DNA of 64,000 nt. Source: a bacterium. GTDB taxonomy: Bacteria; Patescibacteriota; Minisyncoccia; Phycocordibacterales; Phycocordibacteraceae. Position 1 is the stretch's first letter; each line of letters opens with the position of its first letter. The notes under the pieces are model-generated. The model made no database searches. It was not told the DNA's origin and saw only the letters and a list, made by a program, of their open reading frames with translations. The translations under genes were made by a program, and so were the position numbers. This document shows positions 1 through 58,069 of this stretch, piece after piece. Location: NCBI GenBank assembly GCA_037200965.1, contig JBBCGK010000001.1, positions 384,001 through 448,000 on the forward strand. The letters are read 5' to 3'.

Positions 1-2071
1 ACTCGGCGCGCTTCGCTTCGTACGCTGCCTGCGCCGCTTCGTCGCCCATGATGAGTTCGAGTACGAGCGCTTCGATGTCCTCGGCGCTTCCCGTGAGTGC
101 GGCACGGCGGCGGGCATAGACCGCGAGGCGCTGGGTGTTCATCACGTCGTCGTACGCGAGCACCTGCTTGCGGGAATCGAAGTTGAAACCTTCGATGCGC
201 TTCTGCGCGGTCTCAAGCGTCGAGGTGATCATGGAGCTCTCGATCGGCTCGTCCTCGGGAATGCCGAACGTGCCCATGACTCTCTTTATGGTATCCGCCG
301 CAAAGACCCGCATGAGCTTGTCTTCAAGCGATACGAAGAATCTCGTCTCGCCCGCGTCTCCCTGGCGTCCGGCACGACCCCGAAGCTGGTTGTCGATGCG
401 GCGCGCCTCATGCCGCTCGGTGCCGATGACCGCGAGGCCGCCAAGCGCGACGACCTCCTCGCGCTCCTCGGGAAGCGCCGGAACGCCCCCGAGCTTGATG
501 TCGACGCCGCGTCCGGCCATGTTGGTCGCGACGGTCACCTTCCCCTTCCGGCCCGCCTGCGCGATGATCTCTCCTTCGCGTTCGTGGTTCTTCGCATTCA
601 GCATCTCGTGCGGGACTCCCGCGTTCGTAAGATAGGCGCTCACGATCTCGTTATCCTCGATCGAGACGGTGCCGACGAGGACCGGCTGGCCCTTCCCGTG
701 GAGTTCCTTGATGTATTTCGCGACCGCCGCGTACTTCCCCGCCGCGGTCTGGTAGATGAGGTCGTTGTGGTCGGCGCGCTTCGTAGGCCTGTTGGTCGGA
801 ATCACGACCACCTCGAGCCCGTACACGGTATAAAACTCCTCTTCGGACGAGAGCGCGGTGCCGGTCATGCCCGCAAGCGCGTCATACATGCGGAAATAGT
901 TCTGGAAGGTCACGCTCGCGTACGTGCGCGTCTCCCGCTGCACCGCGACGCCTTCCTTGGCTTCGACCGCCTGATGAAGCCCTTCGGACCAGCGCCGGCC
1001 CGGCTGAAGGCGCCCGGTGAATTCGTCGACGATCACGACCTCCCCGTCCTTGACCACATACTCCTTATCATTATGAAAGAGCGCCTTGGCGCGCACGGCC
1101 GTCTCAAGATGGTGCGCGTATTTCATGCCGCCTTCGGTATACAGATTTTCGAGACCGAGCACCTTCTCGGCCTTCCCGATGCCTTCTTCGGTGATCTGGA
1201 TCGCCCGCTGCTTCTCGTCGATGGTATAGTCCTCACCTTCCTTGAACCCTTCGACGATCTTCGCGAAGCGCACGTAGAGGTCTCCCGATTCCGCGGCCGG
1301 ACCCGAGATGATGAGCGGGGTACGCGCCTCGTCGATAAGGATAGAGTCGACCTCGTCGACGATGGCGTAGTGGTGCCCGCGCTGGGAAATCTGGGAAGCG
1401 TCGTAGGCGGTGTTGTCGCGCAGATAATCGAAGCCCAGCTCGTTATTGGTCGCGTAGGTGACATCCGCCGCGTACGCCTCCTTCTTGGTCGCGGGTCGGA
1501 GATAGTCGTAGAACACCCGGAAGGAGCCAAGTTCGTCGCGCGCCTTGTCTTCCTCCTTCTCGACGTGCGATTCGTCGTAGAGATAGCTCCCGCCTGAGGT
1601 GACGACGCCCACCGTTATGCCGAGATAGGCGTATACCTGCCCCATCCAAGTCGCGTCGCGCCTGGCGAGGAAATCGTTCACCGTGACGATATGCACGCCC
1701 TTGCCTGCAAGCGCCCGAAGCACCGCCGGAAGCGTCGCGACCAGGGTCTTGCCTTCTCCGGTGCGCATTTCGGCGATCTTGCCGCGCGCAAGCGCGAGAC
1801 CGCCGATAAGCTGCACGTCGAAATGCCGTTCGTTTCGCGTCCTGCGGGCCGCTTCCCGCACGATGGCGAAGACTTCCGCGATAGCCTCGTCCGAGGGCTT
1901 TCCGTCCGCAACGCGCGTCCGAAGACCCTCAAGCCGGGCCGCAAGCGCTTCCCGAGGAAGCTCCAGAAGCTCGGATTCGAGCGCATTTGCCCGCGCAACC
2001 ACGGGCGCGGCTTCCTTCAGGAATCCTGCGGACTGGTTGCGGGAGAAGAGCCGGTTGAGGATATTGGCCAT
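1..2071 (-). CDS. secA: preprotein translocase ATPase SecA (partial; C-terminus lies beyond window start)
   Basis: Reverse-complement translation from ATG at 2071 reads MANILNRLFSRNQSAGFLKEAAPVVARANALE...HFDVQLIGGLALARGKIAEMRTGEGKTLVATLPAVLRALAGKGVHIVTVNDFLARRDATWMGQVYAYLGITVGVV, the canonical SecA N-terminus with Walker A GEGKT. The + strand ORFs 135-1597 are its antisense. Confidence 0.9.
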   Translation of the reverse strand, partial: MANILNRLFSRNQSAGFLKEAAPVVARANALESELLELPREALAARLEGLRTRVADGKPSDEAIAEVFAIVREAARRTRNERHFDVQLIGGLALARGKIAEMRTGEGKTLVATLPAVLRALAGKGVHIVTVNDFLARRDATWMGQVYAYLGITVGVVTSGGSYLYDESHVEKEEDKARDELGSFRVFYDYLRPATKKEAYAADVTYATNNELGFDYLRDNTAYDASQISQRGHHYAIVDEVDSILIDEARTPLIISGPAAESGDLYVRFAKIVEGFKEGEDYTIDEKQRAIQITEEGIGKAEKVLGLENLYTEGGMKYAHHLETAVRAKALFHNDKEYVVKDGEVVIVDEFTGRLQPGRRWSEGLHQAVEAKEGVAVQRETRTYASVTFQNYFRMYDALAGMTGTALSSEEEFYTVYGLEVVVIPTNRPTKRADHNDLIYQTAAGKYAAVAKYIKELHGKGQPVLVGTVSIEDNEIVSAYLTNAGVPHEMLNAKNHEREGEIIAQAGRKGKVTVATNMAGRGVDIKLGGVPALPEEREEVVALGGLAVIGTERHEARRIDNQLRGRAGRQGDAGETRFFVSLEDKLMRVFAADTIKRVMGTFGIPEDEPIESSMITSTLETAQKRIEGFNFDSRKQVLAYDDVMNTQRLAVYARRRAALTGSAEDIEALVLELIMGDEAAQAAYEAKRAE

Positions 2072-2087
2072 GAATCGACACTATAAC

Positions 2088-2118
2088 GCGAAAAGCCTCC
2101 TTGTGGGAGGCTTTTCGC
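2088..2118. terminator. perfect 10-bp-stem hairpin (AAAAGCCTCC-ttgtg-GGAGGCTTTT) with flanking T/U runs, usable on either strand
   Basis: Inverted repeat seen directly; lies 35 nt downstream of the small minus-strand ORF 2153-2248 and just upstream of the secA -10 element. Confidence 0.55.
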
Positions 2119-2152
2119 TCTAGATCGGTTCCGCCCGAAGGGCGTTGCCAAA

Positions 2153-2248
2153 CTATTTGCGGCGCTTTGCGGCCTTGCGCTTTGCAGGCTTCTTTGCCTT
2201 CGACTTCTTCGAAGTCTTCTTGGCTGCCTTCTTCATTTTCTTTGCCAT
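2153..2248 (-). CDS. 31-aa lysine-rich small basic protein (MAKKMKKAAKKTSKKSKAKKPAKRKAAKRRK), function unknown
   Basis: ATG..TAG ORF on the minus strand in an AT-rich spacer between murB and secA, followed by a terminator hairpin. Too short for the ORF track. Confidence 0.35.
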   Translation of the reverse strand: MAKKMKKAAKKTSKKSKAKKPAKRKAAKRRK

Positions 2249-3424: not shown

Positions 3425-5607
3425 TGGCCCTGGGCCGCCATCGCGTCGATCTGCAGGAGAAGATCCCGGCCCTGGGCCGCGGCCTCGGGATGCGCCGCGA
3501 TGCCTTCCTGGACCGCCTTGCGCGCGCTTGAAAGGTCGCGCGCGTTCACGTATCCGGCCGCGAGGCGGAACCAGGCGTTCGCCGCCCCGTTCTGATCGAT
3601 CACGTTCTGCGCCAGGCTTCGTATAAGGCGCGGCCAGTCCTGAAAACGATAGTACGCGAGAATGAGTTTCTCGTTCGCCACGCTTGTCGTCCCGAATGCG
3701 TCCTGGAGAATGGCATCCGCTGCGACGCTGTCGCCGGTGATGACGCTTCCGACCGCCGCATAGACGGCAAGATCGCTGAAGGAAGGATCGAGCGCATAGG
3801 CTTTCTCATACGCTTCCTTCGCACCGGCCATATCTCCCGCTTCCCAGAGGGTATTTCCTTCTTCTATATATATGCCCTGCTTCCTCGGCGACAGCGCCTC
3901 GGCGGCTTCATCTTGTTTGAGTGCGTTCTGGCTGTCCCCGGCGACCCGATAGGCGAGGGCGTATTCGAGGCGCAGGCGCGGATCAAGCGGCAGACGTTCG
4001 ACGAGCTCTCCCATCTTGGCGATCGCGAAAGAGGCAATCGCGGCTTTATCCTCCTGACCCGTGCTTTCGCTGCTTATGGCGCTCACTGAAAACGACACGA
4101 GCTGTTCGTTTATCTCCTGGGAAGCGAACGCCGGGTGCGTGAGCAAATCCCTGAACGAGGCAAGCTGCCCCGCAGGCCCTTGCGCCGAAGGCGTGATGGC
4201 TTCGATAAGCTGGCTCCCCGCCCGGATACCGGGCACGTTCACGAACCAGAGAACGGCGAGGAGCAGCACCGCGGCCACCGGGAGAACCATGGTCGACGCC
4301 GACTCGTCGGCGACCTCCGGCAGGCGTTCAAGGTACGGAACGGGGCGGGCGCTCTTCCCGTGGATATACGCGATGACTAGAACGAACAGGAGCGAGGATA
4401 TGAGATTGTCGAAGACGAACATCGAATGCACCCCGTACGCAACCAGAAGCGACGACAGGCCGACTTTCTCCGCGATCGTGAATTCGGGACGCCGCAGCAG
4501 GAGCCAGAATGCGGCGATGAAGAGGCTTATATACAGAAGGAACGCCGGAAGACCGCCCGCGACGAGCCAGTCGACGAAGGAATTATGCGCCCGGTCAAAC
4601 CACGCCTCCTGGTCATACAGCGACGGGCGATAGAATTCGCTGAAGACGTAGTTGTAGCCTTCCTGACCCCAGCCGAGCACCGGATGCACGAGGAATCCTT
4701 CGTACGCCATGTGCCAGAGCGCGAAGCGCGTCGAGCCCTGGTCGATCGAAATGGACGCGATGCGCGCAAGCGCGGAATTGTTCGTAACGAACGACGAATC
4801 GCGTACCAAGAAGAATCCGCCGCACAGGACGAGGACTGCGATAACCGCTCCCGCGCCGTACCGCCGAGTTTTCCCGCCCGACAACAGCGCGGCGAGAAGA
4901 CCGGCAACCGCGGCTCCGATGACGACCCCGAGGACCGCCCCGCGCGTCTCGGTCTTAAAGAGGATATAGGTCTCAAAGAGGATAAGCAGCGGGAGCGCAT
5001 ACCGGAGCCACGAACGGCGTTCGATCTCGCCCCGCAGAAGCCAGGCGGCTATGCATATATGGAACAGGAGATATACCGCAAGATACGTGGCGTTCCCGAG
5101 AGATGCGTCCAGACGCCCGCTTCCCTGGTGTATCGCGGCGACGCCCAGAAGCTGCAGGACGCCGTGGAGGCACACGATCACGGAAACCCCGAGCGAGGTA
5201 AGCCAGAGCCGGCGCCACAGATCCTTGGCTGACAGTACCGAGCTCGCTACCACAAAAAGGCCGAGAAGATGGACGAGCGTGATCCATCCCTCCATCCGCT
5301 CGAAGTTGCTCCAGAGCGCCTTTTCGGGGTTTATCGCGAAGCAGTCGGCGAGGAACATCCAAAGCACGAATACGGCGAAGAGCGCGCCAAGCCAGGAGAA
5401 GCGCGGGCGGTATCGCTTGTCGGCAAACGCGAGCACCGCCCATCCGGCGAGCGCGATCTCGACCAGGATACGGAAGGCGAACGCCTTTCCGGTTATGAAC
5501 GGGAAATACAGGCTGTTCGTGACCAAAAGCGGAACAAAGGGCAGAAGGAAGAGCGCCCCGACCGCCGTCCACCACCCTATCTGAGCTGCCGTCCCTTTCA
5601 CATGCAT
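3421..5607 (-). CDS. O-antigen ligase (Wzy_C/WaaL-like) family polytopic membrane protein with C-terminal TPR repeats
   Basis: About 12 TM segments plus a Wzy_C-like motif (RAHNSFVDWLVAGGLPAFLLYISLF); the C-terminal ~250 aa is TPR-like repeats. A TATAGT -10 lies 9 nt upstream of the ATG. Confidence 0.55.
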   Translation of the reverse strand: MHVKGTAAQIGWWTAVGALFLLPFVPLLVTNSLYFPFITGKAFAFRILVEIALAGWAVLAFADKRYRPRFSWLGALFAVFVLWMFLADCFAINPEKALWSNFERMEGWITLVHLLGLFVVASSVLSAKDLWRRLWLTSLGVSVIVCLHGVLQLLGVAAIHQGSGRLDASLGNATYLAVYLLFHICIAAWLLRGEIERRSWLRYALPLLILFETYILFKTETRGAVLGVVIGAAVAGLLAALLSGGKTRRYGAGAVIAVLVLCGGFFLVRDSSFVTNNSALARIASISIDQGSTRFALWHMAYEGFLVHPVLGWGQEGYNYVFSEFYRPSLYDQEAWFDRAHNSFVDWLVAGGLPAFLLYISLFIAAFWLLLRRPEFTIAEKVGLSSLLVAYGVHSMFVFDNLISSLLFVLVIAYIHGKSARPVPYLERLPEVADESASTMVLPVAAVLLLAVLWFVNVPGIRAGSQLIEAITPSAQGPAGQLASFRDLLTHPAFASQEINEQLVSFSVSAISSESTGQEDKAAIASFAIAKMGELVERLPLDPRLRLEYALAYRVAGDSQNALKQDEAAEALSPRKQGIYIEEGNTLWEAGDMAGAKEAYEKAYALDPSFSDLAVYAAVGSVITGDSVAADAILQDAFGTTSVANEKLILAYYRFQDWPRLIRSLAQNVIDQNGAANAWFRLAAGYVNARDLSSARKAVQEGIAAHPEAAAQGRDLLLQIDAMAAQGQ

Positions 5608-5622
5608 ATTGCAAAAACTATA

Positions 5623-6678: not shown

Positions 6679-6680
6679 AG

Positions 6681-7319: not shown

Positions 7320-7389
7320 GAGCCCTGCCGTAAAGCCGCACTATACCACGCGGCCGGATACGGTGCGGAAATGGTATAGTCTCCATGAC

Positions 7390-7782
7390 ATGCCCTCTCC
7401 CCATATGCGCAAGCTCGCGCGCTATGTCGTTTCCGGCGGAACCGCAACCGCGGTGAATTTGCTCGTGCTCTATCTTCTCGTCGATCACGCGGGTATGCAT
7501 TATCTTTCCGCCTCGGTCCTCTCCTTCCTCAGCTCGACCGTCGTGAGCTTTACGCTTCAGAAGTTCTGGACGTTCCGGAACCGGGCGACCGAACGCATGC
7601 ACTTCCAGTTCGCGCTCTACGCACTCATCACGGTCACGAACATTTGCATCAATACCGCTCTCATGTACGGTTTCGTGGACGTGCTTGGCGTTTGGTACCT
7701 CGCCGCGCAGGTGCTCTCGGGCGGACTCATCGCCATTGCAAGTTATTTTACGTACCAGAAGCTCGTCTTCGCGTCCGCATGA
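7390..7782 (+). CDS. gtrA: GtrA-family small membrane protein (polysaccharide synthesis/flippase accessory)
   Basis: 130 aa with four TM helices and a GtrA-like sequence (VVSGGTATAVNLLVLYLLV...FTLQKFWTFR). The start is chosen at the ATG 9 nt downstream of a TATAGT; the ORF-track start at 7222 would overlap the divergent gene. Confidence 0.65.
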   Translation: MPSPHMRKLARYVVSGGTATAVNLLVLYLLVDHAGMHYLSASVLSFLSSTVVSFTLQKFWTFRNRATERMHFQFALYALITVTNICINTALMYGFVDVLGVWYLAAQVLSGGLIAIASYFTYQKLVFASA

Positions 7783-8465: not shown

Positions 8466-8489
8466 GAAGAAGGCGGGTATACTTCCCTC

Positions 8490-9584
8490 ATGCCACGCGG
8501 CAAGACACTCGCGCTTCTTCTGGGTCTTGCTATCGCCATCATTCTTGCCGACGTATTCATCTTCGGCATCGGACACGTCGACACCGGCACCTACCTTTCG
8601 CAGATCGACGGCTGGCGGCACTTCACGTTCGCGGTCACGGACAATCCGTGGGACGCGTTCCGGGCGTTCAAGCCGCTCTACGGCGTTCTCGGGCTCGTCG
8701 GGTGGTTTCTTTCGCCGGTCGCCGTGCTGCTTGTCGTAAACGCGGGGTTCCTCTTCGGGCTCTCGGTCGCGGCCTACCTTTGTCTCGAACGACTCGGGTT
8801 CTCAAAGGAAGAGACGCTTCTCGGCACGTTCTGGGTCATGACCGCCTATCCGGCGCTCGGCCTCGGGTTTGCGGCTGGTACCGATATTTCGGGATGGTTC
8901 TTCTGCGCCGCGACCATCGCGATCGCGCTTCAGGCGATCAGGCTCGAAAGCGATCGCCTGCTTATGCTCGCGTCGCTCGTCGGTTTTCTCGGCGCGACGG
9001 GGAAAGAGACCGGGGTTCTGGGACTCGTATTTGCCGGTACCTATCTTCTGCTCGTATTCTTCGATCGGGGATTTCGCCGCACCCTCCGCTCGCTCGCGGC
9101 GCTCTGCCTTCCCTTCCTGGTCCTAGAAGGACTGCTGCTGTTTGCCATAAGCCAGGCGGGACTTCCCGGATTCTTCGGCTGGGTCACGTTCAATAACGCC
9201 CTGTATGCCGATATCCATACGCTTAAATACTTTATAGGAGCGGAACTCGCGACGTTCGGTATCCTGTGGCTGCCGGCCGCTCTTGGCGCATATGCGCTTC
9301 TTGCGCGCCGCATTCGGACCGGTGCGCGGGAGTGGAAACTCCTCGCCGCGCTCGGGTTAGCCGCGCTCATACCGATCGCGTGGCCGACATTCACCGACCG
9401 CATCCTCTACATCCAATGGATCGCCCTTGTTCCGCTCGCGCTCTATGGCGCGCGGTTCCTTGGTCTCCCCCGCTATCGCTGGATCCTCTACCTTGCACCC
9501 GTCGCCGTAAGCGCGGTGTTATTGTCCATCGGAGGGCATGACGGGCTGTACCGCTTCGCGCACTATCTTGCGAATTTCCTATGA
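8490..9584 (+). CDS. polytopic membrane protein, GtrC-like / GT-C-type candidate glycosyltransferase
   Basis: 364 aa with at least 10 TM helices, directly after the gtrA-gtrB-like pair. A TATACT lies 6 nt upstream of the ATG. Confidence 0.35.
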   Translation: MPRGKTLALLLGLAIAIILADVFIFGIGHVDTGTYLSQIDGWRHFTFAVTDNPWDAFRAFKPLYGVLGLVGWFLSPVAVLLVVNAGFLFGLSVAAYLCLERLGFSKEETLLGTFWVMTAYPALGLGFAAGTDISGWFFCAATIAIALQAIRLESDRLLMLASLVGFLGATGKETGVLGLVFAGTYLLLVFFDRGFRRTLRSLAALCLPFLVLEGLLLFAISQAGLPGFFGWVTFNNALYADIHTLKYFIGAELATFGILWLPAALGAYALLARRIRTGAREWKLLAALGLAALIPIAWPTFTDRILYIQWIALVPLALYGARFLGLPRYRWILYLAPVAVSAVLLSIGGHDGLYRFAHYLANFL

Positions 9585-10852: not shown

Positions 10853-10855
10853 CAT

Positions 10856-12897: not shown

Positions 12898-13800
12898 TTA
12901 GATAAAATATTGCTGAACGGATGCGCGGATGGAGTCGCGCATCGTAACAAACTCGGGATATTGGTAGAAGAAAAGTATCTTCTGGTCTTTTTTGAGCGTA
13001 CCGGCAGGCTTCGCCCGAAGCACGAAGTCGGTGAACGATTCGGCGATGTCTTCCTCGGGACCGCTCGCGCCGTACTTGGTGGTGAAATCGTCGAGGTGCC
13101 GGTTGTAAAACGCGGGCGTCTTCCCTTTCTCCCGCGCCTCGCGCGCGTCCGCCACGTCGCCGGCGCTCCAGAAAGCTTTCACGAACGCGTCGAGATACGA
13201 ATCCTTTTTGGTGCACCCGGCAAGAGAGAGATACCGCCCTGTTTTGGCGCAATAGCGCGGACTCTTTTTCTTGAATTCGACCTGATCCTTATCGAGCGTG
13301 AGGAGATGCGTGTATTCGTGCGTCAGGATGATGGCGGCGTCGCGCACCCATGTCCGGTTCTCGAAGCTGGACGCGTTCGTGTTCACGGCGAGCATCCACG
13401 ACGGCTGCTTGTTGCTTATGCGCGTCACGAACGCGAGCACGGGCTCGTGCGGGAGATTGTAGGTAAGGTAGACGCCGATATGCTGGTAGGTGAAGTCGGT
13501 CCCCGCGATGCCCTCGAATATGTCCCAGACTTTCTGCTCGTTGGTGTCCGTGTTCCTCGTCCACTTGTAGTTCTTATACAGCCGCTGGTTCGCGACCCTG
13601 AACACGTTCACGATGTCCTCTTCGTCATACGGCACTTCCCTGCTCACCTCATTCCCGATGGGAACGTCGAGAGAGGAACGGTCGAACGACCATTCGGTAT
13701 TGGCTGTCGGGACGGCCTGGACTGGCGGGGCCGCCTGGGCGGGCAGCGCCATAAGGAGCGCGAACGGCAGAAGGAGGGCGCTATAGAAAGCCTTTCTCAT
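12898..13800 (-). CDS. secreted putative zinc metallopeptidase (HExxH: HEYTH)
   Basis: About 300 aa with a signal peptide (MRKAFYSALLLPFALLMALPAQA) and an HEYTHLLT motif. The start is chosen at ATG 13800, 7 nt downstream of a TATAGT; the track start at 13809 is a GTG. Confidence 0.5.
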   Translation of the reverse strand: MRKAFYSALLLPFALLMALPAQAAPPVQAVPTANTEWSFDRSSLDVPIGNEVSREVPYDEEDIVNVFRVANQRLYKNYKWTRNTDTNEQKVWDIFEGIAGTDFTYQHIGVYLTYNLPHEPVLAFVTRISNKQPSWMLAVNTNASSFENRTWVRDAAIILTHEYTHLLTLDKDQVEFKKKSPRYCAKTGRYLSLAGCTKKDSYLDAFVKAFWSAGDVADAREAREKGKTPAFYNRHLDDFTTKYGASGPEEDIAESFTDFVLRAKPAGTLKKDQKILFFYQYPEFVTMRDSIRASVQQYFI

Positions 13801-13893
13801 GCCGAACACTATATACCGGGCTGTGGGCGAAATGAAGGCGCGTCTTGCGGAAACGTTAAAGCGTAAAGGAATACGATCGACTGCTAGAAGCCA

Positions 13894-33614: not shown

Positions 33615-34708
33615 ACGAGGGATTTTAGAAATGTGGCGGTTCTAGGAATCAGAGCCTCGACGGAAAAGCGTTTCGCGGATTCGCGCGCTTCCCGCGAAAG
33701 GCGCGCAGCAAGCTCCTTGTCGGAAAGAATGCGCCTGAGGGCTTCGACAAGCGCATCCGCATCGCCCGGCGGCGCGAGAAGCCCGTTCTCTCCGTTGCGT
33801 ATGAGTTCGCCGTTTCCGCCGACATCGGTCGTGACGACCGGAACGCCGAGCGCGAGCGCTTCGATAAGCAGATGCGAGAGGCCTTCGTATGAGGTATTGA
33901 GCACGAACGCGTCCGCGCTTTCCATGACCGTAAGCGTATCGGCGTGCGAGAGCCGTCCTGTAAGCACTGCCCGACTCCCGAGTTTCTTCGCGTGCGTCCC
34001 GATGTTCGCGTGTTCGGGCCCGTCGCCGACGATCGCGAGCGATACGCTCGGAACCGACTCCGATACCGCTGCGACCGCGTCTATCGTGCCTAGCATCCCC
34101 TTCCACGGTACCAGGCGGCCGACGGATACGACAAGAGGCCGCGAAAGCGCGGCCACCGATTCGTGCACCCTGCCCGGTTTTTCTGACTGCATGGCGTTAT
34201 AGATAACTTCGATTTTCTCTGCGGGGATGCCCCAAATCGCTGTAACGTCCTTGAGGTATGTGCTCGGGACGATCACGCGGACCGCGTTTTTCGCGACCCT
34301 GGTTTGGATCCATCTAAGTGCGCCAACTGGGAATGGAACCGTCTTCGTCCGGACGAACGTATCCAAATCGGCCACGATTCCAAACCGCTGCCTCCCCTGC
34401 TCCCAGGCATAGTCGCCGACGATCTTTACGACAAACGGCTTCCCCGCCCGTTTCGCGGCCTTCATCGCCGGAAAGCCGACCGAGACCGGGTCAAGCGCGA
34501 GTATCGCGTCCGCTTCCCGCGCTGCCTTAAGAACGCGGCGATAGTAGGCGAAATGCCGGATAAGCTTCGGCAGATGCCGTACATCCGAGAACTTCACCAC
34601 CTCGACCTCGATTCCCTGTCCAGGAAAGCCCTCGACAAGGAGTTTGGCGTAGGTAGCTGGCCCCCCGGACTCGGGCGGGTATAAAGGAGTCGCTATGACG
34701 AGCCGCAT
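33611..34708 (-). CDS. GT4-family glycosyltransferase
   Basis: 365 aa; ...TSYEGLSHLLIEALALGVPVVTTDVGG. Confidence 0.75.
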   Translation of the reverse strand: MRLVIATPLYPPESGGPATYAKLLVEGFPGQGIEVEVVKFSDVRHLPKLIRHFAYYRRVLKAAREADAILALDPVSVGFPAMKAAKRAGKPFVVKIVGDYAWEQGRQRFGIVADLDTFVRTKTVPFPVGALRWIQTRVAKNAVRVIVPSTYLKDVTAIWGIPAEKIEVIYNAMQSEKPGRVHESVAALSRPLVVSVGRLVPWKGMLGTIDAVAAVSESVPSVSLAIVGDGPEHANIGTHAKKLGSRAVLTGRLSHADTLTVMESADAFVLNTSYEGLSHLLIEALALGVPVVTTDVGGNGELIRNGENGLLAPPGDADALVEALRRILSDKELAARLSREARESAKRFSVEALIPRTATFLKSLV

Positions 34709-34717
34709 GGGGCCATT

Positions 34718-37371: not shown

Positions 37372-37414
37372 GCCTTGAGGATAAGGGTTTCGTGAAGGAA
37401 TACAAGGCGAAAGC

Positions 37415-39518: not shown

Positions 39519-39588
39519 GCGCCTATTATACACTTTCCAACGCAACGGCCGCGCCTAAAGACGCGGTCGTTGCTTATTTTCGTTTTTT

Positions 39589-39828: not shown

Positions 39829-40512
39829 TCAAGGACTCACGATGACGACAAATTCTCCCCGGATCTCGCCCGGAAACGCCGCGAAATGCGCCCGGCACTG
39901 GGTAGCGGTGCCGACGACGAGCGACTCGTAGAGTTTCGTGAGCTCGCGGCAAACGGCGACCTTCCGATTGGCGTCGAGGACCTCGACAAGAGAATCGAGC
40001 GCTTTCTCGATACGGTGCGGGGATTCATAAAAAACGACAGCGCGCCGGCTTGTTCCGATTTCCTTAAAGAGCGTCTGCCGCCCTTTTTTATGCGGAAGGA
40101 ATCCGAGGAACGTGAACTCCGCAGCCGGGAGTCCCGCGATCGAGAGTGCGGCAGTAAGGGCCGAGGCGCCAGGGATGGCCTCGATCTTTACCGATTCCCC
40201 GAGCCGCTCGCGCGTTTCTCTTACCAGCTCGTTTCCGGGGTCCGAGATGCCCGGCGTCCCCGCATCGGTCACGAGCGCGACGCGCTTTCCTTCCCCAAGA
40301 AGCGCGAAGATCTTCGAGGCAGCCTTGGGGCCGCTTCGCGCATGGAAAATAAGAAGCGGCTTCGAGATTTCATAGCGCGCCAAGAGCTTCGCCGTCACGC
40401 GCGTGTCCTCGCACGCTATCGCGTCGGCCTGCCTGAGCGTCTCGAGCGCCCGCAGCGTGATGTCACCCAGGTTGCCTATGGGCGTTGCCACAACGGAAAG
40501 AGTCCCGAGCAT
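39829..40512 (-). CDS. rsmI: 16S rRNA (cytidine1402-2'-O)-methyltransferase RsmI
   Basis: 227 aa, tetrapyrrole-methylase fold: LSVVATPIGNLGDITLRALETL...AIACEDTRVT...TDAGTPGISDPG. Confidence 0.85.
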   Translation of the reverse strand: MLGTLSVVATPIGNLGDITLRALETLRQADAIACEDTRVTAKLLARYEISKPLLIFHARSGPKAASKIFALLGEGKRVALVTDAGTPGISDPGNELVRETRERLGESVKIEAIPGASALTAALSIAGLPAAEFTFLGFLPHKKGRQTLFKEIGTSRRAVVFYESPHRIEKALDSLVEVLDANRKVAVCRELTKLYESLVVGTATQCRAHFAAFPGEIRGEFVVIVSP

Positions 40513-40606
40513 CGTGTCCGTACCTTACCACCATGCGCTTCGTCCGAACAGCGCAGGACGCTGTTCCCGGGATTATTCGTGGATAAATTGCCGGGTCCAC
40601 GAGTCG

Positions 40607-44099: not shown

Positions 44100-44146
44100 T
44101 TTCGATGCATGGGTGCCTTTTCTCTGCCTCTGCTACACTGGCCCGT

Positions 44147-45067
44147 ATGGCCCGAATCTATGACAAGGCGTATTTCGGTTCAAAGGTGGTGCCCATTGAT
44201 GACGCAGCGCTCAACATCACTACCTCAGCTGTACTCTACGGGCTCAGCGTCTATACGGTATTCCCGGTATGCGTGACGCAAGACGGACTCGCAGCGTTTC
44301 GCCTGTCCGACCATTTCAAGCGCCTTATCGAGTCGGCGCGCATAGTTGGAATCGACACATTCGAACAGGAATGGACGTATGAGAAGTTCTTGGTGGCCGT
44401 GAAGGAGACTACGGCCGCAAACAGCATCCGCCAAGACGCATTCGTGCGCGCGAGTGTACATGTGAGTGAGCGCGTGCCGGGCACGCGCTCGAGAGGACTG
44501 GCGACGACCTTGAGCATGTTCGTCTATGAAGCACTCCCGATCATCCCGCAGGACGGGACGCGCCTCAAGACGAGCGTCTGGAGGCGCGTCCCCGACTATG
44601 CGATTCCTTCCCGCGCGAAGGTAAACGGGGCGTATGTGAACTCGGTGCTTGGAAAGCAGGACGCGCTCGACAGCGGGTACGACGACTGCATCTTCCTAGA
44701 CGCCGAAGGCCATGTCTGCGAATTGTCCGCGGCAAACATCTTCATCGTCCGCGACGGCATGCTTGTTACACCGCCGACCTCAGGCGATATTCTTGAGGGA
44801 ATAAACCGGCGCACCATACTCGAGCTTGCGAAGAACATGGAAATCCCCGCGGTTGAACGCACGATCGACCTTACCGAACTCTATGTGGCGGAGGAGGCAT
44901 TCGCCTGCGGTACCTCTTCCTTCATCGCTCCTATCGCCGAGATCGACAAGCGTCGTATCGGTTCGGGTGCGATAGGCCCGATTACGACACGGATACGGCA
45001 ACAACACACGGCCGCGCTTCACGGGAGCGATCCGGCTTACCACAAATGGCTTACGATTTTAAGCTAG
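44147..45067 (+). CDS. class IV (fold-type IV) aminotransferase: branched-chain amino acid or D-amino-acid aminotransferase
   Basis: About 306 aa with motifs FLDAEGHVCELSAANIFIV and GITR-like regions. The start is chosen at ATG 44147, 7 nt after TACACT. Its stop overlaps the murD stop on the opposite strand at the CTAG. Confidence 0.7.
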   Translation: MARIYDKAYFGSKVVPIDDAALNITTSAVLYGLSVYTVFPVCVTQDGLAAFRLSDHFKRLIESARIVGIDTFEQEWTYEKFLVAVKETTAANSIRQDAFVRASVHVSERVPGTRSRGLATTLSMFVYEALPIIPQDGTRLKTSVWRRVPDYAIPSRAKVNGAYVNSVLGKQDALDSGYDDCIFLDAEGHVCELSAANIFIVRDGMLVTPPTSGDILEGINRRTILELAKNMEIPAVERTIDLTELYVAEEAFACGTSSFIAPIAEIDKRRIGSGAIGPITTRIRQQHTAALHGSDPAYHKWLTILS

Positions 45068-46272: not shown

Positions 46273-47588
46273 GGCTGGTGATAGTCGGCGGGAATGCCGT
46301 GCTCCCCGGTCGTCTCAGAAAGCATGGGCAAATACGCACCTCCTTCCATAATCGGCAGAGCTGCCAACACCGCCGGGAGCGGCAATCCTGCGTCGCTATA
46401 CTGCTTCGCGGAAAGATAAAGCGCGAGAAGATTTTCCTTGAACGTACCCACACAATCAAATGGCTTCCCCTCGTGCATACCGATCAATTCCTCAAAGAGC
46501 GGAATGAGAGCCGCATCCTCAAAGAGATTCTTCCTGAAGATATTGAAAACGGTGTTTGGCGCAAGAAATGCGGATAACGCTCCGAACATGAAAGCGCATT
46601 TCGCGCATTCGCCACACCACGACCCGGTCTTAAGGCCCCGATTGCAAGAAACGAAATACGGAAAATATTGCGGATATTCGATGAATCTGCGGACCACCTG
46701 CAGCTCGTAGAGCGGCCGGATAAGGGAAAAGAGGCGGATGCCTGGATTCACATACTTCCGGACATACTCTGCCGCCATCTTCTCGAACTCATAGCTTTTC
46801 GAATACTGATGGTTAATATTCTGACCCAGATACTCGACATTACCTTCGCTCGCGCTCCGTTCAAGCGAGGGAATTATATCGGTGAAGCCGTTCGCCTGCG
46901 CGGCAAGCACGGCGCTCATCATGTATGTGGCGGTGATAGGCACGTGTCCGTTCGGCGCTCCCCGCTTCACAAGCTCCATGACGGGAGCGAAATTCTTCGC
47001 CACATCGCGCCTGACGCTCACACAATCGGTGACTCCGGACACTTCGCGCAGGCGCGGGCCAAAAGGGAGCGGTTCGAGCTCGAACCATGAAAATGCTTTC
47101 TCTTGCTTTTTTAGCAGTTCGCCAGTCACCAAGCTGTCCTTCCCTCCTCCGAAAGGCACCAGCGCGCGGCGCGGGCCATTCGGGATACTTTGAACCGGCA
47201 AAATATCGGGTGCCTGAGGGTCTCCAACCACGTGTACCAGCCCTCGAAAGTCGATCTTGTTGACATAAAAGAATTCCCCAAGACCCTGAGTATATAAATT
47301 CTCCCAAAATGCGATTTGTTCCGGCAAAAGCCGCCCCGCTTTTATAACAATTTCCGGAGCAAGGATTGCTTTCCAAAAGCCCGCAAGTTCCGCGAGACCG
47401 AGTGCAAACGCAGCTGGTCTTAATGTTTCGGGGTTTGTGCCGTCTGGGAATGTATACCCAAGTTCGTGGACGAAGCGGTGCCCGGCATCGGTCGTATAGG
47501 TATAGGCAACCTTCCCCCGTTCGATATCTATCGCAAACGCATCGAAATAGAATCTGTGCGCGAGCGGCGAAGGTTTCATCGCGTCCAT
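46269..47588 (-). CDS. PP-loop (SGGKDS-type) ATP-pyrophosphatase-superfamily protein with a C-terminal CxxC...CGxCxKC zinc motif; candidate MurL-like glycopeptidyl-glutamate epimerase
   Basis: 439 aa: RALVPFGGGKDSLVTG (PP-loop) and SCNRGLKTGSWCGECAKCAFMFGAL. ATGA-coupled to murD. Confidence 0.4.
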   Translation of the reverse strand: MDAMKPSPLAHRFYFDAFAIDIERGKVAYTYTTDAGHRFVHELGYTFPDGTNPETLRPAAFALGLAELAGFWKAILAPEIVIKAGRLLPEQIAFWENLYTQGLGEFFYVNKIDFRGLVHVVGDPQAPDILPVQSIPNGPRRALVPFGGGKDSLVTGELLKKQEKAFSWFELEPLPFGPRLREVSGVTDCVSVRRDVAKNFAPVMELVKRGAPNGHVPITATYMMSAVLAAQANGFTDIIPSLERSASEGNVEYLGQNINHQYSKSYEFEKMAAEYVRKYVNPGIRLFSLIRPLYELQVVRRFIEYPQYFPYFVSCNRGLKTGSWCGECAKCAFMFGALSAFLAPNTVFNIFRKNLFEDAALIPLFEELIGMHEGKPFDCVGTFKENLLALYLSAKQYSDAGLPLPAVLAALPIMEGGAYLPMLSETTGEHGIPADYHQP

Positions 47589-47633
47589 GCCCCTATTCTA
47601 CCCGCAGAACCGCACTCACGCACGAAACGGAAC

Positions 47634-48182
47634 CTACTCGCACTCCCTGGTCGAAGTCGCGTCCTGGTGCGTCACCGGAAGCGGGCTTCTCGGCATGACG
47701 ATGATGCTATACGGGGTCGAGAGGGACTGCGTCACCATGCAGCCCTTGCCCGGGACGGTGAGGGTGACATAGACGGTACGCTCGGTCGCGCTGTCCTCGA
47801 CTTTCGTGACCGCGATGGCGTATCCCCCGGTTGGCTTTTGCCCGGCGAACACCCCAACGACCTCCTGCGAGGAAAGGTCGACCGCGGGCGTCGTCGAACT
47901 GGTACCGAACGCGAGTTTCCAGAGTTTCGCAATCCCCTCGGCATCGGTCGCGAGATAGTTCTTGCGGGTCGTAACGCCTCCGGCATGGGTGCCGGTGGTG
48001 AGTGTCGTGAAGTCCACGGGGCCTCCTATCTCCATCGCTTCGGTCGAGTTCGGCGTCGTAGTAGCCACCTGCTCGACGGCGGGCACGCCCATCATAAGCT
48101 CGTCAGGAGTGTAAAAATAAAGATAGGCACCGATGATGCCGGACGCGATGATCATCCCGACGATGATAAGAAGGTCTTTCAT
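47634..48182 (-). CDS. membrane-anchored PrcB_C-like domain protein (protease-complex subunit PrcB family), tentative
   Basis: An N-terminal TM (MKDLLIIVGMIIASGIIGAYLYFY) and a C-terminal motif GVFAGQKPTGGYAIAVTKV...GKGCMVTQSLSTPYSIIV. The start is chosen at ATG 48182, 6 nt after TATACT; the track start at 48242 overlaps the tRNA. Confidence 0.4.
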   Translation of the reverse strand: MKDLLIIVGMIIASGIIGAYLYFYTPDELMMGVPAVEQVATTTPNSTEAMEIGGPVDFTTLTTGTHAGGVTTRKNYLATDAEGIAKLWKLAFGTSSTTPAVDLSSQEVVGVFAGQKPTGGYAIAVTKVEDSATERTVYVTLTVPGKGCMVTQSLSTPYSIIVMPRSPLPVTHQDATSTRECE

Positions 48183-48237
48183 AGGTCTAGTATACCTTCT
48201 GTGCGGGCCCCGGGGGCGTTCTCCACAGGGAATTTTG

Positions 48238-48599: not shown

Positions 48600-48933
48600 T
48601 TCAGTGCATCGAAAACCTGTAGTCGCGTTCTCTTTTGTTCCGCCTATCCTGCTCCCGCTCAAAGGCTCACGTGTGGCCTTCAAGCGACCGCCGGGTTACG
48701 TTATCCGGCTTCCGTAGCGCGTTTGGGGACGACGCTAATCTCCCACTGTCCTTGCAGACAATATCGACATGATATGCCTTTCGGGCGATATCGGTTCCAA
48801 TTGGATATGTTCCACGAGCAGCTTCCGCTACCCGTGCCTTGTTTCGACTTACTCCCTGTCATTGAGTTTGCCGTAGTCCTGCATACGCAGAATTTCGGGC
48901 ACCCCCAACTCCCTTGAGTTGACGGGCGAATGT

Positions 48934-49824
48934 GATACTTAGGCAAGTTCACGTTCCCACGCAGCGAGCGGATTTCCCGCACTGCGCGAGCCCCCGGCGT
49001 GCATTTTCGATTTCAACACAGCGATCTTCCTAACCCCTTCTTTCGTGTGATGGGCTTTCGCAATCGCGAGCTCGAGGACTTGGTAAAATAGCTCAAAGTC
49101 CTTTACGCGCTTGCTTTCAAGCGGGTGCCTTTTGAAAAAAGGCACCACGACTTGCTTCAAGAGATCGTAGCTGAAGATCTCGAACCGATAATTATCCCGT
49201 TGATTCTTCCGATATTCGCGTTGGAAGTATATCTTTCCGCATCCCCAGAATTTCTGTACTTTCTCAAGAAGAGGAAGTTCGTCTTCCCGCATCTTGATGT
49301 AGTAACGGCACTGCACCCGGTAACTTACCGAGCCATGCTCTTTCTTAGGTGGAAGCAGATAGACACAGAAACTCCCTTCGCCATCGGTCAAACCGACGAT
49401 GTAATCAGCGGATAGCACGCCTGGTTTTGTCCTTCTCGCGTTCTTCTTGTGGAAGAGCGCAATACTACGACGCAGCTGACTCCCAGTGTCTTTTGATTCC
49501 TGCATACCGACATAGTATCAATGAGTTGACACTACGGGTATTCAAGAACCGTTGCCGTTGTGGACAACTGGGTCTCCCCGGGTTACGCATACTTCTATTC
49601 CATACATCCTCTACGGGCCTTTCTTCGGCACCTTCCCTATCCTCACCGCCCACTGATAGGTCGATGCGGCCCTTTTTGTGTACAGGCTGTGTTTTGCTTC
49701 CAGATCCTTCAGTCCATACCTTACGGCATTGGACCTATCTTTCGGCTACGCTCCCCACGACGAGTGAGGAGGAGTGGATTTGAACCACTTAGAACTATGC
49801 GCTGCCGGGCGCATTTATTTGTGA
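48934..49824 (-). mobile_element. intervening sequence (group-I-intron-like, ~890 bp) inserted near E. coli 16S position ~1396 (CTTGTAC|ACATTCGCCCGTCA)
   Basis: Conserved 16S sequence stops after TTGTAC at 49825 and resumes at 48933. The insert encodes a LAGLIDADG ORF. Confidence 0.7.
48939..49505 (-). CDS. LAGLIDADG homing endonuclease (single-motif type)
   Basis: 188 aa with the motif YIVGLTDGEGSF; the ORF ends at the insert boundary. Confidence 0.8.
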   Translation of the reverse strand: MQESKDTGSQLRRSIALFHKKNARRTKPGVLSADYIVGLTDGEGSFCVYLLPPKKEHGSVSYRVQCRYYIKMREDELPLLEKVQKFWGCGKIYFQREYRKNQRDNYRFEIFSYDLLKQVVVPFFKRHPLESKRVKDFELFYQVLELAIAKAHHTKEGVRKIAVLKSKMHAGGSRSAGNPLAAWERELA

Positions 49825-50689: not shown

Positions 50690-51624
50690 CATCGTGTGTG
50701 GCATGCCGCACGGGCATGCCGCTCATATCGCTATGAGGATCGGACTATATCATCACCCACCAATACTGATGGGGCTCGGCGTGTAGTCTCTGAGGGGTCA
50801 AAGTATATATTCCGATGATCAGAAGGAAGCTTGTACCTGAAACAGGGCAGGATGTAAGGGGCGACGGTTCTTGTAAACGCGTCGCGTCCTTCTTTCCCGA
50901 TATACAGTTTCGGATACCGCTTCCCGCGGCACAGCGACAAATAGGTTTTTGCCGCGATGCCGAATCTCTCTAATAACAGCGCTTGCAGTCGCTTCACCTC
51001 CGATTCCGTGAAAGAATCAGTACTGATGTGGTACGCATAATGGGATTTTGCTCGATAATCGAGCCTCCCATCATCCATGAACCACACCGCGAGCGTGAGC
51101 GGCGACCGGAACAATTCGGTGATATTTCCAGGAACGACCTTCTCGCGTCCCGCGTAGAAGATTTTGCGCATGTCTTCGAGGTTCTCGAAGAAACGCGTTC
51201 CGAAATACCACTGTTTCGTATCCGGTCTTTGCTTCGGAGGAGTTTTGACGAGATGCGCGAAGTGACTATAAAGCCACACTACATACTCCTTTCGTTCCTC
51301 CGATTGCTTTACCTGCAATCGGGTGCCTCGATAGCCGTTAAACTCGAGATTTCCATCTCCGAGCATGAGGCCTACGAGCACATCCCGTTGTTGCTTCGAG
51401 AGCGCACAGATCATCTTCACAATTATACTCGACTTCCCTGCTGATTGTCTCTTGGGATCTGATTTTGATTTCAAAGAAATCTAAACCAGACGCAGTCCAC
51501 AAGAGAGTTCCAGCATATAGCCAAGTTTTCGATCTCGATTTCTCGAGAAAGCTGCACGCGGTAACGAACGGTTCGTGAGAACCGTTCGATTTGCTCCAAT
51601 GCGCAGAGCCACCTGCGCACGTGT
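50690..51624 (-). mobile_element. intervening sequence (~935 bp) inserted in the 16S 515-region (AACTCTGT|GCCAGCAGGAGCGGTAATAC)
   Basis: The exon sequence ends at 51625 and resumes at 50689. The flanking universal-primer site reads GCCAGCAGGAGCGGTAATAC rather than GCCAGCAGCCGCGGTAATAC. Confidence 0.7.
50731..51474 (-). CDS. LAGLIDADG homing endonuclease (double-motif type)
   Basis: 247 aa with VGLMLGDGNL and VWFMDDGRL motifs. Confidence 0.8.
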   Translation of the reverse strand: MKSKSDPKRQSAGKSSIIVKMICALSKQQRDVLVGLMLGDGNLEFNGYRGTRLQVKQSEERKEYVVWLYSHFAHLVKTPPKQRPDTKQWYFGTRFFENLEDMRKIFYAGREKVVPGNITELFRSPLTLAVWFMDDGRLDYRAKSHYAYHISTDSFTESEVKRLQALLLERFGIAAKTYLSLCRGKRYPKLYIGKEGRDAFTRTVAPYILPCFRYKLPSDHRNIYFDPSETTRRAPSVLVGDDIVRSS

Positions 51625-52214: not shown

Positions 52215-52241
52215 ACTATAGGAGGGCGGGAGGGGCGTCAA
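52215..52241 (-). promoter_or_regulatory. putative rRNA promoter TTGACG-N15-TATAGT (minus strand), ~135 nt upstream of the 16S 5' end
   Basis: Hexamers read from the reverse complement of 52215-52241; the spacer is one nt short of optimal. Confidence 0.4.
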
Positions 52242-56133: not shown

Positions 56134-57435
56134 TTATTTGCGAAGCCCGCTACCAGTAAGAAAACGCCATGCCCCCGTGTTTGCTTCGGGCAGTATCGCA
56201 AGCAGGAAGATGCGCGAGACGGTGACGGCGGAGACGAGCGAAGCGATGACGCCGAGCGCGAAAACGAGCGCGAAGCCCTGGATGAGGCTCGTTCCGAGCC
56301 AGAAGAGAATCACCGCGGAAATAAGCATCGTAAGGTGGCCGTCCCTGATCGCGGGCCACGCGCGGCTGAAGCCGATGTGCGCGGCTTCGCGGGGCCCCTT
56401 CCCTTCGCGAAGCTCTTCCTTGATGCGCTCGAAGATGAGCACGTTCGCGTCGACCGCCATACCGACCGATATGATAAGCCCCGCGATGCCGGAGGCGGTA
56501 AACGTGACCGGAATGAATTTCATCACGGAAAGGACGAGCGCGAGATAGCCGACGAGGGCAACGTCCGCGACCAGGCCCGGAAGACGGTACCAAAGAAGCA
56601 TGAAAACCGCGACCAGGAGGAATCCGACGATGCCGGCAAGCACTCCGGCGGTAATGGCGTTCGCGCCAAGAGTCGGCCCCGCGGTGTTCGAACCGATAAG
56701 TTCGATCGGGACCGGAAGCGCGCCGAAGTTAAGGTTCTGCACCAGGCTCTTCGCTTCGGTCGCGTTGAACTTACCGGTAATGGTTGCGGTGCCGCCCGGA
56801 ATCGCCTCCTGAATGACGGGCGTCGAAATCGGCGAGCCGTCGAGGAAGATGCCGAGTATGTCGCCGACGTGCTCGCTCGTGATTTTCTCGAAAAGCTTCG
56901 CGCCTTCGTCGTTGAACTTGAGAAGGACAATAGGGCTTCCAAGCACGTTGCTTGCGCCGCCGTTCCCGAATTCAAGCGACGCATTCGCAAGATACTGGCC
57001 GGTGAGTCCGGTCGAGACGAACTCGGTCGTCGTGCCGACCGTCTTCTGGAGCCGGAATTCGAGCACCGGCGTCTTGCCGATCGCGTCGACCGCGGCCTTC
57101 ACGTTCGTGACGCCCGGGAGATCGACGATAAGGCGGTCTTCCGCCTGGCCGTTGAGGGTGCTCGCCCGCTCGGTCTGGACGAGGGGTTCCGCGACGCCGA
57201 AGAGGTTCACGCGGCGCTCGATAACCTGATGAAGCGACGCGAGGGCGCCCGGGCGGCTTGCCTCAGCGATCGAGGCAGTATCCGCCTTATAGGTGAGTTC
57301 GGTACCTCCCGCAAGGTCGAGGCCGAGCTTGAAGCGCCACGGGGACTCGGGATTGGCCTGGGTCGACCAGACGAACCATATAAGCGCGGCTCCTATGATA
57401 AGGAGCCCGATGGCGGCAAGCCGATGATGCTTCAT
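56134..57435 (-). CDS. secD: protein translocase subunit SecD
   Basis: 433 aa: LGLDLAGGTELTYKAD..., a periplasmic domain and a C-terminal 6-TM domain. TTGCAT-N16-TATACT lies 9 nt upstream of the ATG. Confidence 0.85.
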   Translation of the reverse strand: MKHHRLAAIGLLIIGAALIWFVWSTQANPESPWRFKLGLDLAGGTELTYKADTASIAEASRPGALASLHQVIERRVNLFGVAEPLVQTERASTLNGQAEDRLIVDLPGVTNVKAAVDAIGKTPVLEFRLQKTVGTTTEFVSTGLTGQYLANASLEFGNGGASNVLGSPIVLLKFNDEGAKLFEKITSEHVGDILGIFLDGSPISTPVIQEAIPGGTATITGKFNATEAKSLVQNLNFGALPVPIELIGSNTAGPTLGANAITAGVLAGIVGFLLVAVFMLLWYRLPGLVADVALVGYLALVLSVMKFIPVTFTASGIAGLIISVGMAVDANVLIFERIKEELREGKGPREAAHIGFSRAWPAIRDGHLTMLISAVILFWLGTSLIQGFALVFALGVIASLVSAVTVSRIFLLAILPEANTGAWRFLTGSGLRK

Positions 57436-57495
57436 GATGGGCCTAGTATAAGGAATTAGGGGCCGGATGCAACCGCATCCGAACCAGGTGGAATC

Positions 57496-57765
57496 TTATT
57501 CAAAAAGATCGGCATGGGTGCCGGTGCGGTGGAGGATAATACTGGATTCCGTGACGGCATAGACGAGGAGCCAGTCGGGTTCGATATGGCATTCGTCGGT
57601 TCCTTTCCACTCCCCTTGAAGGGGGTGAGGCTTGTAGTCCGGGGGAAGGCTGCCTTGAGCCGCAAGCAAGCGCGTGACGGCCACCATCTTCTCTCGATCT
57701 TTCCCCCGTTTTAACTGACGCCGGATATCTTTCTTGAACCGGCTTGTTTGAAGAAGAATCCTCAT
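57496..57765 (-). CDS. yafQ: type II toxin YafQ (RelE/ParE superfamily)
   Basis: KRGKDREKMVAV...DYKPHPLQGEWKGTDECHIEPDWLLVY...LHRTGTHADLFE is a near-textbook YafQ signature. The start is at the second ATG (MRILLQ), in an ATGA overlap with dinJ. Confidence 0.75.
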   Translation of the reverse strand: MRILLQTSRFKKDIRRQLKRGKDREKMVAVTRLLAAQGSLPPDYKPHPLQGEWKGTDECHIEPDWLLVYAVTESSIILHRTGTHADLFE

Positions 57766-58031
57766 GCGCGCATAGCGCGCAACTCCTTCTCCCATGCATC
57801 GAACGATTTCGGCTTCAGCAGCCCGCGGCCCTTACGGGCATCGCGGATGACTTTTGCGGTTTCGGCGTTGGGGATATTGGTACTGAACGGGAGTCCTTGG
57901 TTGAGGGTTACTTGCGTATAGAAGAGCGTAACGGCATCCGTCGGGGAGAGGCCGATTCTCGAAAGCACCGCCTCTCCCCTGCGCTTGAGCGAGGGTTCCA
58001 TGCGGGCTCGTACCGTTGCGGTTTTTGCCAT
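57762..58031 (-). CDS. dinJ: type II antitoxin DinJ (RelB/DinJ family)
   Basis: MAKTATVRARMEPSLKRRGEAVLSRIGLSPTDAVTLFYTQV... The start is chosen at ATG 58031, 6 nt after TACACT. Confidence 0.7.
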   Translation of the reverse strand: MAKTATVRARMEPSLKRRGEAVLSRIGLSPTDAVTLFYTQVTLNQGLPFSTNIPNAETAKVIRDARKGRGLLKPKSFDAWEKELRAMRA

Positions 58032-58069
58032 ATGCGCAGTGTAGCCCATTTGGGCTACACTTGCAAATC

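Follow-up and report, generated by a model that had tools for sequence, protein, structure and literature searches.

How does a bacterium choose its start codons when its 16S rRNA lacks the anti-Shine-Dalgarno (anti-SD) sequence? The question is raised by a stretch of 64 kb (GC content ~0.59) of contig JBBCGK010000001.1, hereafter called the window, in which a reading of the sequence alone had listed eleven genes with a -10 promoter hexamer 6-9 nt before the ATG. That reading took the eleven genes to be the first of their transcription units, and proposed that their mRNAs are leaderless, with 0-3 nt in front of the start codon and no Shine-Dalgarno (SD) motif. We have found that in about half of the transcription units of the window a -10 box does lie at the ATG. 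Because these boxes adjoin the ATGs and the 16S rRNA has no anti-SD, many of the mRNAs are likely to be leaderless or nearly so.

The closest relatives of the SecA protein of the window (62-63% identity) belong to genomes labelled Saccharibacteria, Paceibacterota (Parcubacteria), Patescibacteria or Vogelbacteria, which places the host among the Patescibacteria, also called the Candidate Phyla Radiation (CPR). The host is an unusually GC-rich member of the radiation, an ultra-small bacterium. The reference gene set, which covers nearly the whole window, consisted of independent gene calls from public copies of the contig. These copies were contig JBBCBH010010897.1 (960 kb) of assembly GCA_037975565.1, assembly GCA_015655515.1 and two Logan assemblies.

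Enrichment of -10 hexamers next to start codons

The eleven combinations of hexamer, spacer and ATG are all present in the sequence exactly as listed, and eight of the starts coincide with an independent gene call, the three that differ being those of gtrA, the RHS gene and dinJ/relB. We scored the motif TANNNT at 5-9 nt before the start codon and took as background the ATGs of both strands that are not starts. With the independent calls the motif preceded 13 of 28 unit-first genes and only 70 of 1680 background ATGs (4.2%; binomial p=2e-11), which bears out within the window the claim that the spacing exceeds chance. Among genes in which no other start codon separates the called start from the in-frame stop upstream, so that the true start has no place further upstream, the motif was found in 10 of 20 (p=2e-9). 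Furthermore, of the 47 strict hexamers (TATAAT, TATAGT or TATACT, both strands), 9 are placed 5-9 nt ahead of a start, against an expectation of ~0.1 (p=1e-15). Two counts free of annotation gave the same picture: in front of ATGs followed by 100 or more open codons TANNNT peaks at a spacing of 5-7 nt, and with the first ATG of long open reading frames (ORFs) the peak is at 6-7 nt. The modal spacing between -10 box and ATG is 6-7 nt and, after alignment on the ATG, T is found at -12 in 15 of 30 sequences, A at -11 in 17 of 30 and T at -7 in 15 of 30. ATG is the start codon of 17 of the 18 start-proximal -10 candidates and of 52 of the 54 called genes, a predominance that would follow from a dependence of initiation on an AUG which is either 5'-terminal or re-used.

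The same organisation was found in other CPR genomes. About 14 of 21 CPR orthologues of secA carry TANNNT 6-9 nt before a conserved ATG, which opens the conserved N-terminus M-S/A-x-L-x-K-I-F-G-D; the set includes genomes with a GC content of 0.50, in which the motif has a low probability of arising by chance. In eight CPR relatives with a GC content of at least 0.5 (102 kb), 22 of 75 crudely defined starts have the motif against a background of 5.2% (p=2e-11), and there is no SD peak. In fourteen non-CPR control loci that received identical treatment the SD peak, at 4-11 nt, was strong and a -10 peak was lacking, and the crude-start method can therefore be considered to behave properly. AT-rich secD loci of the CPR (L095, L096, L098 and L107) have the canonical promoter TTGACT-N17-TATAAT followed by AT-rich leaders of roughly 5-30 nt that contain no SD. 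SD-less initiation in the CPR is thus not always leaderless, and the layout of the window is not common to the whole radiation.

16S rRNA and the absence of Shine-Dalgarno motifs

The 16S rRNA gene of the window is encoded on the minus strand, from 52084 to 48800, and is interrupted by two long insertions. Its 3' tail (48800..48813, minus strand) reads GGAACAUAUCCAAU where GGAUCACCUCCUUA is expected; the bacterial consensus is GGAUCACCUCCUUU, and the Rfam small-subunit consensus, in an alignment that spans model positions 1362-1533, is GGAUcACCUCCUUu. The core CCUCC is replaced by UAUCC, and the anti-SD is for this reason absent.

SD-like 4-mers at 4-12 nt before the start were found in 5 of 54 genes, with no enrichment over a background of 9.6%, and in 1 of 26 internal genes, below that background. 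None of the start-proximal -10 genes has one. SD enrichment was seen nowhere: neither the window nor its close CPR relatives show a peak, whereas in the non-CPR controls it is clear. We also looked for 16S 3' ends in 170 collected loci, in order to relate the loss of the anti-SD to the -10 peak, and the only one found there was that of the window itself.

One gene for a hypothetical protein of 298 amino acids (h298, ATG at 54580, minus strand) has both an SD-like GGAGG at 7-9 nt and a TATAAT 37 nt upstream (54581-54623). In an organism that lacks the anti-SD this GGAGG could be a coincidence, or the gene could be a recent acquisition.

Promoter or ribosome-binding site

SD sites lie at similar distances from the start codon, and for this reason the spacing alone does not decide between a promoter and a ribosome-binding site. 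T-12, A-11 and T-7, though, are placed just as in a sigma-70 -10 hexamer whose +1 is the A of the ATG. The same TATAGT hexamer precedes the 16S rRNA gene, which is not translated (TTGACG-N15-TATAGT at 52215..52241, minus strand, ~130 nt upstream of the 16S 5' end). A TG motif at positions -15 and -14 is the hallmark of the extended -10 promoter and a DNA contact of sigma region 3. When 22 putative promoters of the window were aligned on the hexamer, 14 had a G at -14 (p=9e-4) and 10 a T at -15 (p=7e-3). TGn precedes 6 of the 18 start-proximal hexamers and 5.2% of all TANNNT of the window (p=2e-4).

Further evidence comes from secD. In a metagenomic contig (L091) with a SecD 83% identical to that of the window, the TTGCAT, the TATACT and the stretch from the box to the ATG are conserved, while the core of the spacer and the sequence further upstream differ. 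The boxes have, in sum, the features of extended -10 sigma-70 promoters (T-15/G-14 plus TAnnnT, a weak -35, occurrence also at a non-coding gene), and RNA polymerase would bind at them.

Predictions at the RNA level were negative. Pairing of the upstream regions with the 16S tail of the organism was no better than at background ATGs (p=0.87) and was likewise not enriched with an E. coli-type tail (p=0.96). Leaderless candidates and internal genes showed no difference in predicted 5'-end structure, and random windows were more structured than either. A terminator scan of positions 1-20000 gave no enrichment.

Genes without a -10 box of their own

Twenty-one internal cistrons have no intergenic space of their own and start at -4 to +3 nt from the upstream stop, 14 of them as ATGA overlaps. 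At most one has an SD-like 4-mer 4-12 nt upstream. Judged from this arrangement, the stop/start-coupled cistrons are probably translated by termination-reinitiation. TANNNT at 5-9 nt is found in only 4 of these 21 genes, against 8 of the 11 that start 9-100 nt past a gene of the same strand (Fisher p=0.004). These latter cistrons thus mostly have a -10 box of their own, which sometimes overlaps the upstream stop. From all this a simple rule may be proposed: some cistrons are stop/start-coupled and the others have a -10 box of their own at the ATG, apart from a minority of leadered units.

Divergent promoters placed back to back were seen twice. Between the methyltransferase gene and gtrA (7320-7389), GGTATAGT is present on both strands, and the Bac_transf and GT4 genes are separated by 35 nt (61316-61350) that contain an overlapping TATACT/TATAGT pair (TATACTATA). 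The methyltransferase, gtrA, Bac_transf and GT4 genes appear to have SD-less leaders of ~3-14 nt.

Weighing the explanations

It could be argued that the pattern is a product of chance or base composition, or an artefact of gene callers, or of the reader, choosing ATGs that happen to lie beside TA-rich hexamers; TANNNT is certainly a loose pattern and the callers preferred another start for three of the eleven genes. However, the enrichment persisted with independent calls, with first-codon starts and with strict hexamers, and also with the crude first-ATG rule, which in the non-CPR controls returned the SD peak and no -10 peak. We regard this explanation as practically negligible, and the pattern of -10 boxes before ATGs is confirmed as real and non-random. 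What the hexamer does is a separate matter. It might act in the RNA, as a non-SD ribosome-binding motif on leadered mRNAs of the type known from Bacteroidota (group B of GeneMarkS-2) that perhaps co-evolved with the altered 16S tail. The altered tail itself, the 6-9 nt spacing, which is also typical between a ribosome-binding site and a start, and the 4 of 21 tightly coupled genes that carry the motif where 4.2% would be expected all speak for such a role. Yet the motif is not complementary to the tail, whose reverse complement is CCAATTGGATATGTTCC, and the duplex energies given above are not enriched. It is lacking in 17 of the 21 coupled genes, and the hexamer with its TGn recurs in the rRNA promoter and, upstream of other starts, at distances that vary between 13 and 37 nt. 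The T-15/G-14 enrichment and the conserved -35 of secD are features of sigma-70 promoters at the DNA level. A ribosome-binding role is, then, very unlikely.

A closer competitor accepts the boxes as promoters and supposes that the mRNAs have short leaders (4-10 nt), or that the true starts are further downstream, so that initiation would be 30S-dependent and SD-independent on unstructured leaders, and not the 70S leaderless type. Four of the eleven listed sites have the longer spacing of 8-9 nt, several units of the window have SD-less leaders of roughly 6-30 nt, and the AT-rich secD loci described above have comparable ones. Against this, with the modal spacing of 6-7 nt the usual +1 falls on the A of the ATG, and the N-terminus of SecA aligns with those of its orthologues. 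In addition, the ATGs of secA and secD are the first start codons of their ORFs, and another start in frame follows at a distance of 23 codons in secA and of more than 60 in secD. For the sites as a group we find short leaders unlikely, if less so than a ribosome-binding role.

Several observations weigh against a leaderless interpretation and have to be set beside it. The sequence analysed is the window plus ~7 kb on each flank (~78 kb) of a 960-kb contig, and the +1 positions are inferred from sequence. The 8-9 nt spacings of secA, the ligase gene, secD and gtrA imply leaders of 1-3 nt, or else the use of an overlapping hexamer or a long discriminator. Called and read starts differ in gtrA (7405 and 7390), the RHS gene (23472 and 23451) and dinJ/relB (58049 and 58031). 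Five genes (MT1, h177, BacTr, GT4x and h298) have the -10 box 13-37 nt upstream, with apparently SD-less leaders on which our model does not explain initiation. The -35 region is weak at the start-proximal promoters. A generic sigma-70 scan for two hexamers (positions 1-20000) returned 8 sites where 7.8 are expected and missed the start-proximal boxes; such a scan is uninformative here because the promoters are dominated by the -10. Finally, TANNNT at 4 of the 21 tightly coupled genes exceeds the 4.2% background (p=0.01), which fits internal promoters, though a role at the RNA level would look alike.

Taking everything together, promoters at the ATG that give leaderless or near-leaderless mRNAs are likely and remain our preferred reading, favoured by every sequence test that was run, and the original proposal of 0-3 nt leaders stands in a trimmed form: some of the sites would be internal promoters, the RHS site is doubtful, and the sites with 8-9 nt spacing may carry 1-3 nt of leader. 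The housekeeping promoters would be dominated by an extended -10 (TGnTAnnnT, most often with TATAGT or TATACT) with a weak -35, and in about half of the units this box would occupy positions -12 to -7 from the A of the ATG. Transcription by RNA polymerase would then begin on the start codon or 1-3 nt upstream and yield a leaderless or near-leaderless mRNA, whose 5'-terminal AUG would be read by ribosomes in the absence of SD pairing. Cistrons that have no -10 box of their own would be reached by termination-reinitiation at the stop/start junctions.

A wider reading is possible, and we offer it tentatively. The whole anti-SD-less branch of the CPR might do without SD pairing and rely almost wholly on two modes, an extended -10 at -12 to -7 for each independent cistron and, for the others, reinitiation at stop/start overlaps of at most 4 nt, the loss of the anti-SD and the placing of promoters at the ATG having co-evolved. 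This would include -10 boxes embedded in the last codons or the stop of the upstream gene, or, for homing endonucleases, in rRNA insertions. If true, it would represent a cellular bacterial counterpart of mitochondrial translation initiation.

Start sites along the window

Upstream of secA (2069..2085, minus strand) TATAGT at 2080-2085 lies 8 nt before the ATG at 2071, with an overlapping TAGTGT at 6 nt; the independent call agrees on this ATG. Just upstream, and separated from the -10 box by 2 nt, is a 13-bp GC-rich hairpin, GCGAAAAGCCTCC-CACAA-GGAGGCTTTTCGC followed by a T-run (2088..2118, minus strand); the 60-nt segment that contains it has a predicted fold of -30.3 kcal/mol. The hairpin looks like a terminator and, since it adjoins the -10 box, there would be little or no room for a leader if upstream transcription ends there. 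The site of secD (57433..57472, minus strand) does have the upstream element that had been reported: TTGCAT (57467-57472), a 16-nt spacer and TATACT (57445-57450), 9 nt before the ATG at 57435.

Not all the listed genes are first in their units, and judged by spacing the label is wrong for three of them. The Wzy_C/O-antigen-ligase gene (5605..5622, minus strand; TATAGT 5617-5622, 9 nt, ATG 5607) starts 15 nt past the stop of a PMT_2 gene, whose TGA is abutted by the TATAGT, which would thus be an internal promoter. The membrane protein gene (8478..8492, plus strand; TATACT 8478-8483, 6 nt, ATG 8490) starts 24 nt past the upstream stop, and the relB/dinJ antitoxin gene (58029..58043, minus strand; TACACT 58038-58043, 6 nt, ATG 58031) 20-38 nt past folD, depending on the start considered. 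The last one has TTGCAA 17 nt upstream of its TACACT. The Pfam RelB domain begins at residue 11 of the long form. For gtrA (7375..7392, plus strand), where TGgTATAGT (hexamer 7375-7380) is found 9 nt before ATG 7390, the GtrA domain is compatible with both starts, and Pfam domain positions do not discriminate between the alternatives in either gene.

Two gene names had to be corrected. The gene called prcB-like (48180..48194, minus strand; TATACT 48189-48194, 6 nt, ATG 48182), located 55 nt past a tRNA-Ile, codes for a protein that merely has a PrcB_C domain, and the supposed metallopeptidase of 300 amino acids (13798..13813, minus strand; TATAGT 13808-13813, 7 nt, ATG 13800) has no Pfam match. 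In both cases, as in secD, secA, the ligase gene, the membrane protein gene and the gene of a TrwB/TraG-like coupling protein (T4CP; 39516..39530, minus strand; TATAAT 39525-39530, 6 nt, ATG 39518), the start is that of the independent calls. The start of the class IV aminotransferase gene (44134..44149, plus strand; TGcTACACT with the hexamer at 44134-44139, 7 nt, ATG 44147) is called in one assembly, and another has it at 44105. At the gene of the giant RHS/YD protein (23449..23464, minus strand) TACGAT (23459-23464) is indeed found 7 nt before ATG 23451, but the case is a weak one: the callers use another ATG, and a TATAGT abuts a third one at 23556.

About ten sites can be added to those originally listed. 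On the minus strand these are a glycosyltransferase gene (34706..34720; TAGAAT 34715-34720, 6 nt, ATG 34708), which starts 9 nt past the upstream gene and whose hexamer shares bases with that gene's TAG stop, an epimerase gene (37369..37383; TATCCT 37378-37383, 6 nt, ATG 37371), a TP_methylase gene (40510..40527; TGgTAAGGT with the hexamer at 40522-40527, 9 nt, ATG 40512) and the MurL gene (47586..47600; TAGAAT 47595-47600, 6 nt, ATG 47588). A gene that starts with GTG at 26309 is a further case. In the flanks, four genes have a start-proximal -10: an MNT antitoxin gene, gatB and two hypothetical genes.

The list is completed by two LAGLIDADG homing-endonuclease ORFs (51414-50731 and 49505-48939), one in each insertion of the 16S rRNA gene and both on the minus strand, with a -10-like hexamer 6-7 nt before each ATG. 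The site of the former (51412..51427) has TATAAT at 51422-51427, 7 nt before ATG 51414, and that of the latter (49503..49517) has TGaTACTAT with the hexamer at 49512-49517, 6 nt before ATG 49505. This suggests that the endonucleases are expressed from internal promoters of their own as leaderless mRNAs, and not from the rRNA transcript.

Other features of the region

The rRNA genes of this organism are unlinked. The 23S and 5S genes are on the strand of the 16S gene, ~14 kb upstream of it and separated from it by protein-coding operons, and the 23S gene contains a group I intron and LAGLIDADG ORFs (positions 1090-6563 of locus L088, ~2-7 kb beyond the right end of the window). Following the 16S gene there is a tRNA-Ile(GAT) gene, with a hairpin and T-run between them (48237-48340 and ~48565-48600, minus strand). 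A TACTAT hexamer is located 9 nt before the mature 5' end of this tRNA, which may be made with almost no 5' leader.

The segment from ~12000 to 16000, downstream of the gene of a 2641-aa SpvB/RHS/YD-shell protein, has a GC content of 0.49 (against ~0.59) and contains orphan ORFs and clustered strong -10 hexamers. Toxin-tip or immunity cassettes may make up this island. The 960 nt from 26313 to 27272 have no independent gene call and coincide with breaks in two other assemblies of the organism, and may be variable or repeated. An IS1595-family DDE transposase gene (40620-41414, minus strand) has the Mur ligase cluster on one side and the TP-methylase/T4CP genes on the other.

Implications

A promoter at the ATG together with strict stop/start coupling represents a candidate, and testable, answer to how start codons are chosen in Parcubacteria that lack the anti-SD. 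It has practical consequences as well. Gene callers tuned to SD motifs misplace starts in such genomes, and gtrA, relB/dinJ, the aminotransferase and RHS genes are candidates for this error. With every -10 box as the sign of a transcription unit, the sequence itself would provide the operon map. For the few CPR members that can be cultivated, expression tools would need leaderless designs.

Comparison with known systems

About half of the Parcubacteria are reported to lack the anti-SD motif, and SD helices probably do not form in those that lack it (Tsurumaki et al. 2022, RNA 28:1041, PMC9297842). The organism studied here resembles them in its CPR lineage and in a 16S 3' end devoid of CCUCCU. 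In the searched text of that article no proposed mechanism of initiation was found and the word leaderless has no occurrence. A full-text literature search, of incomplete coverage, so that a prior description is possible, returned no paper in which leaderless mRNAs are associated with CPR, Patescibacteria, Parcubacteria or Saccharibacteria, and a preprint on the TM7x transcriptome does not mention transcription start sites, untranslated regions (UTRs) or promoters.

Archaeal promoters consist of TATA/BRE boxes ~26 nt upstream, unlike the sigma-70 -10 box at about -10. Haloferax retains the anti-SD, and mitochondrial mRNAs arise by processing and not from a promoter at each gene. In Haloferax volcanii and other archaea (group D of GeneMarkS-2) and in mammalian mitochondria most transcripts are leaderless and SD motifs are not used on 5' UTRs (PMC3986360, PMC11775629). 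The mitochondria are like the window also in having an rRNA without anti-SD. The Bacteroidota-type group B shares with the window that the SD is hardly used. In group B, though, a single non-SD motif precedes first and internal genes alike on leadered mRNAs and the anti-SD is kept (PMC6028130); in the window the motif is a promoter box that is largely missing at coupled internal genes (4 of 21).

The closest likeness is with group C, in which a Pribnow box precedes the starts of first genes by 6-8 nt and 25-50% of the operons are leaderless; it comprises mostly Actinobacteria and Deinococcus-Thermus, and CPR are not among the lineages given for it (PMC6028130). Like Mycobacterium tuberculosis, Streptomyces coelicolor and Deinococcus deserti of this group, the organism of the window has TANNNT near the starts of first genes, a weak -35 and a preference for AUG (PMC6028130). 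Those genomes differ in that they keep the anti-SD and the SD on internal and leadered genes, while the window has neither an anti-SD nor SD enrichment. By its sequence, the gene-start organisation described here is the known leaderless architecture of group C in a new lineage.

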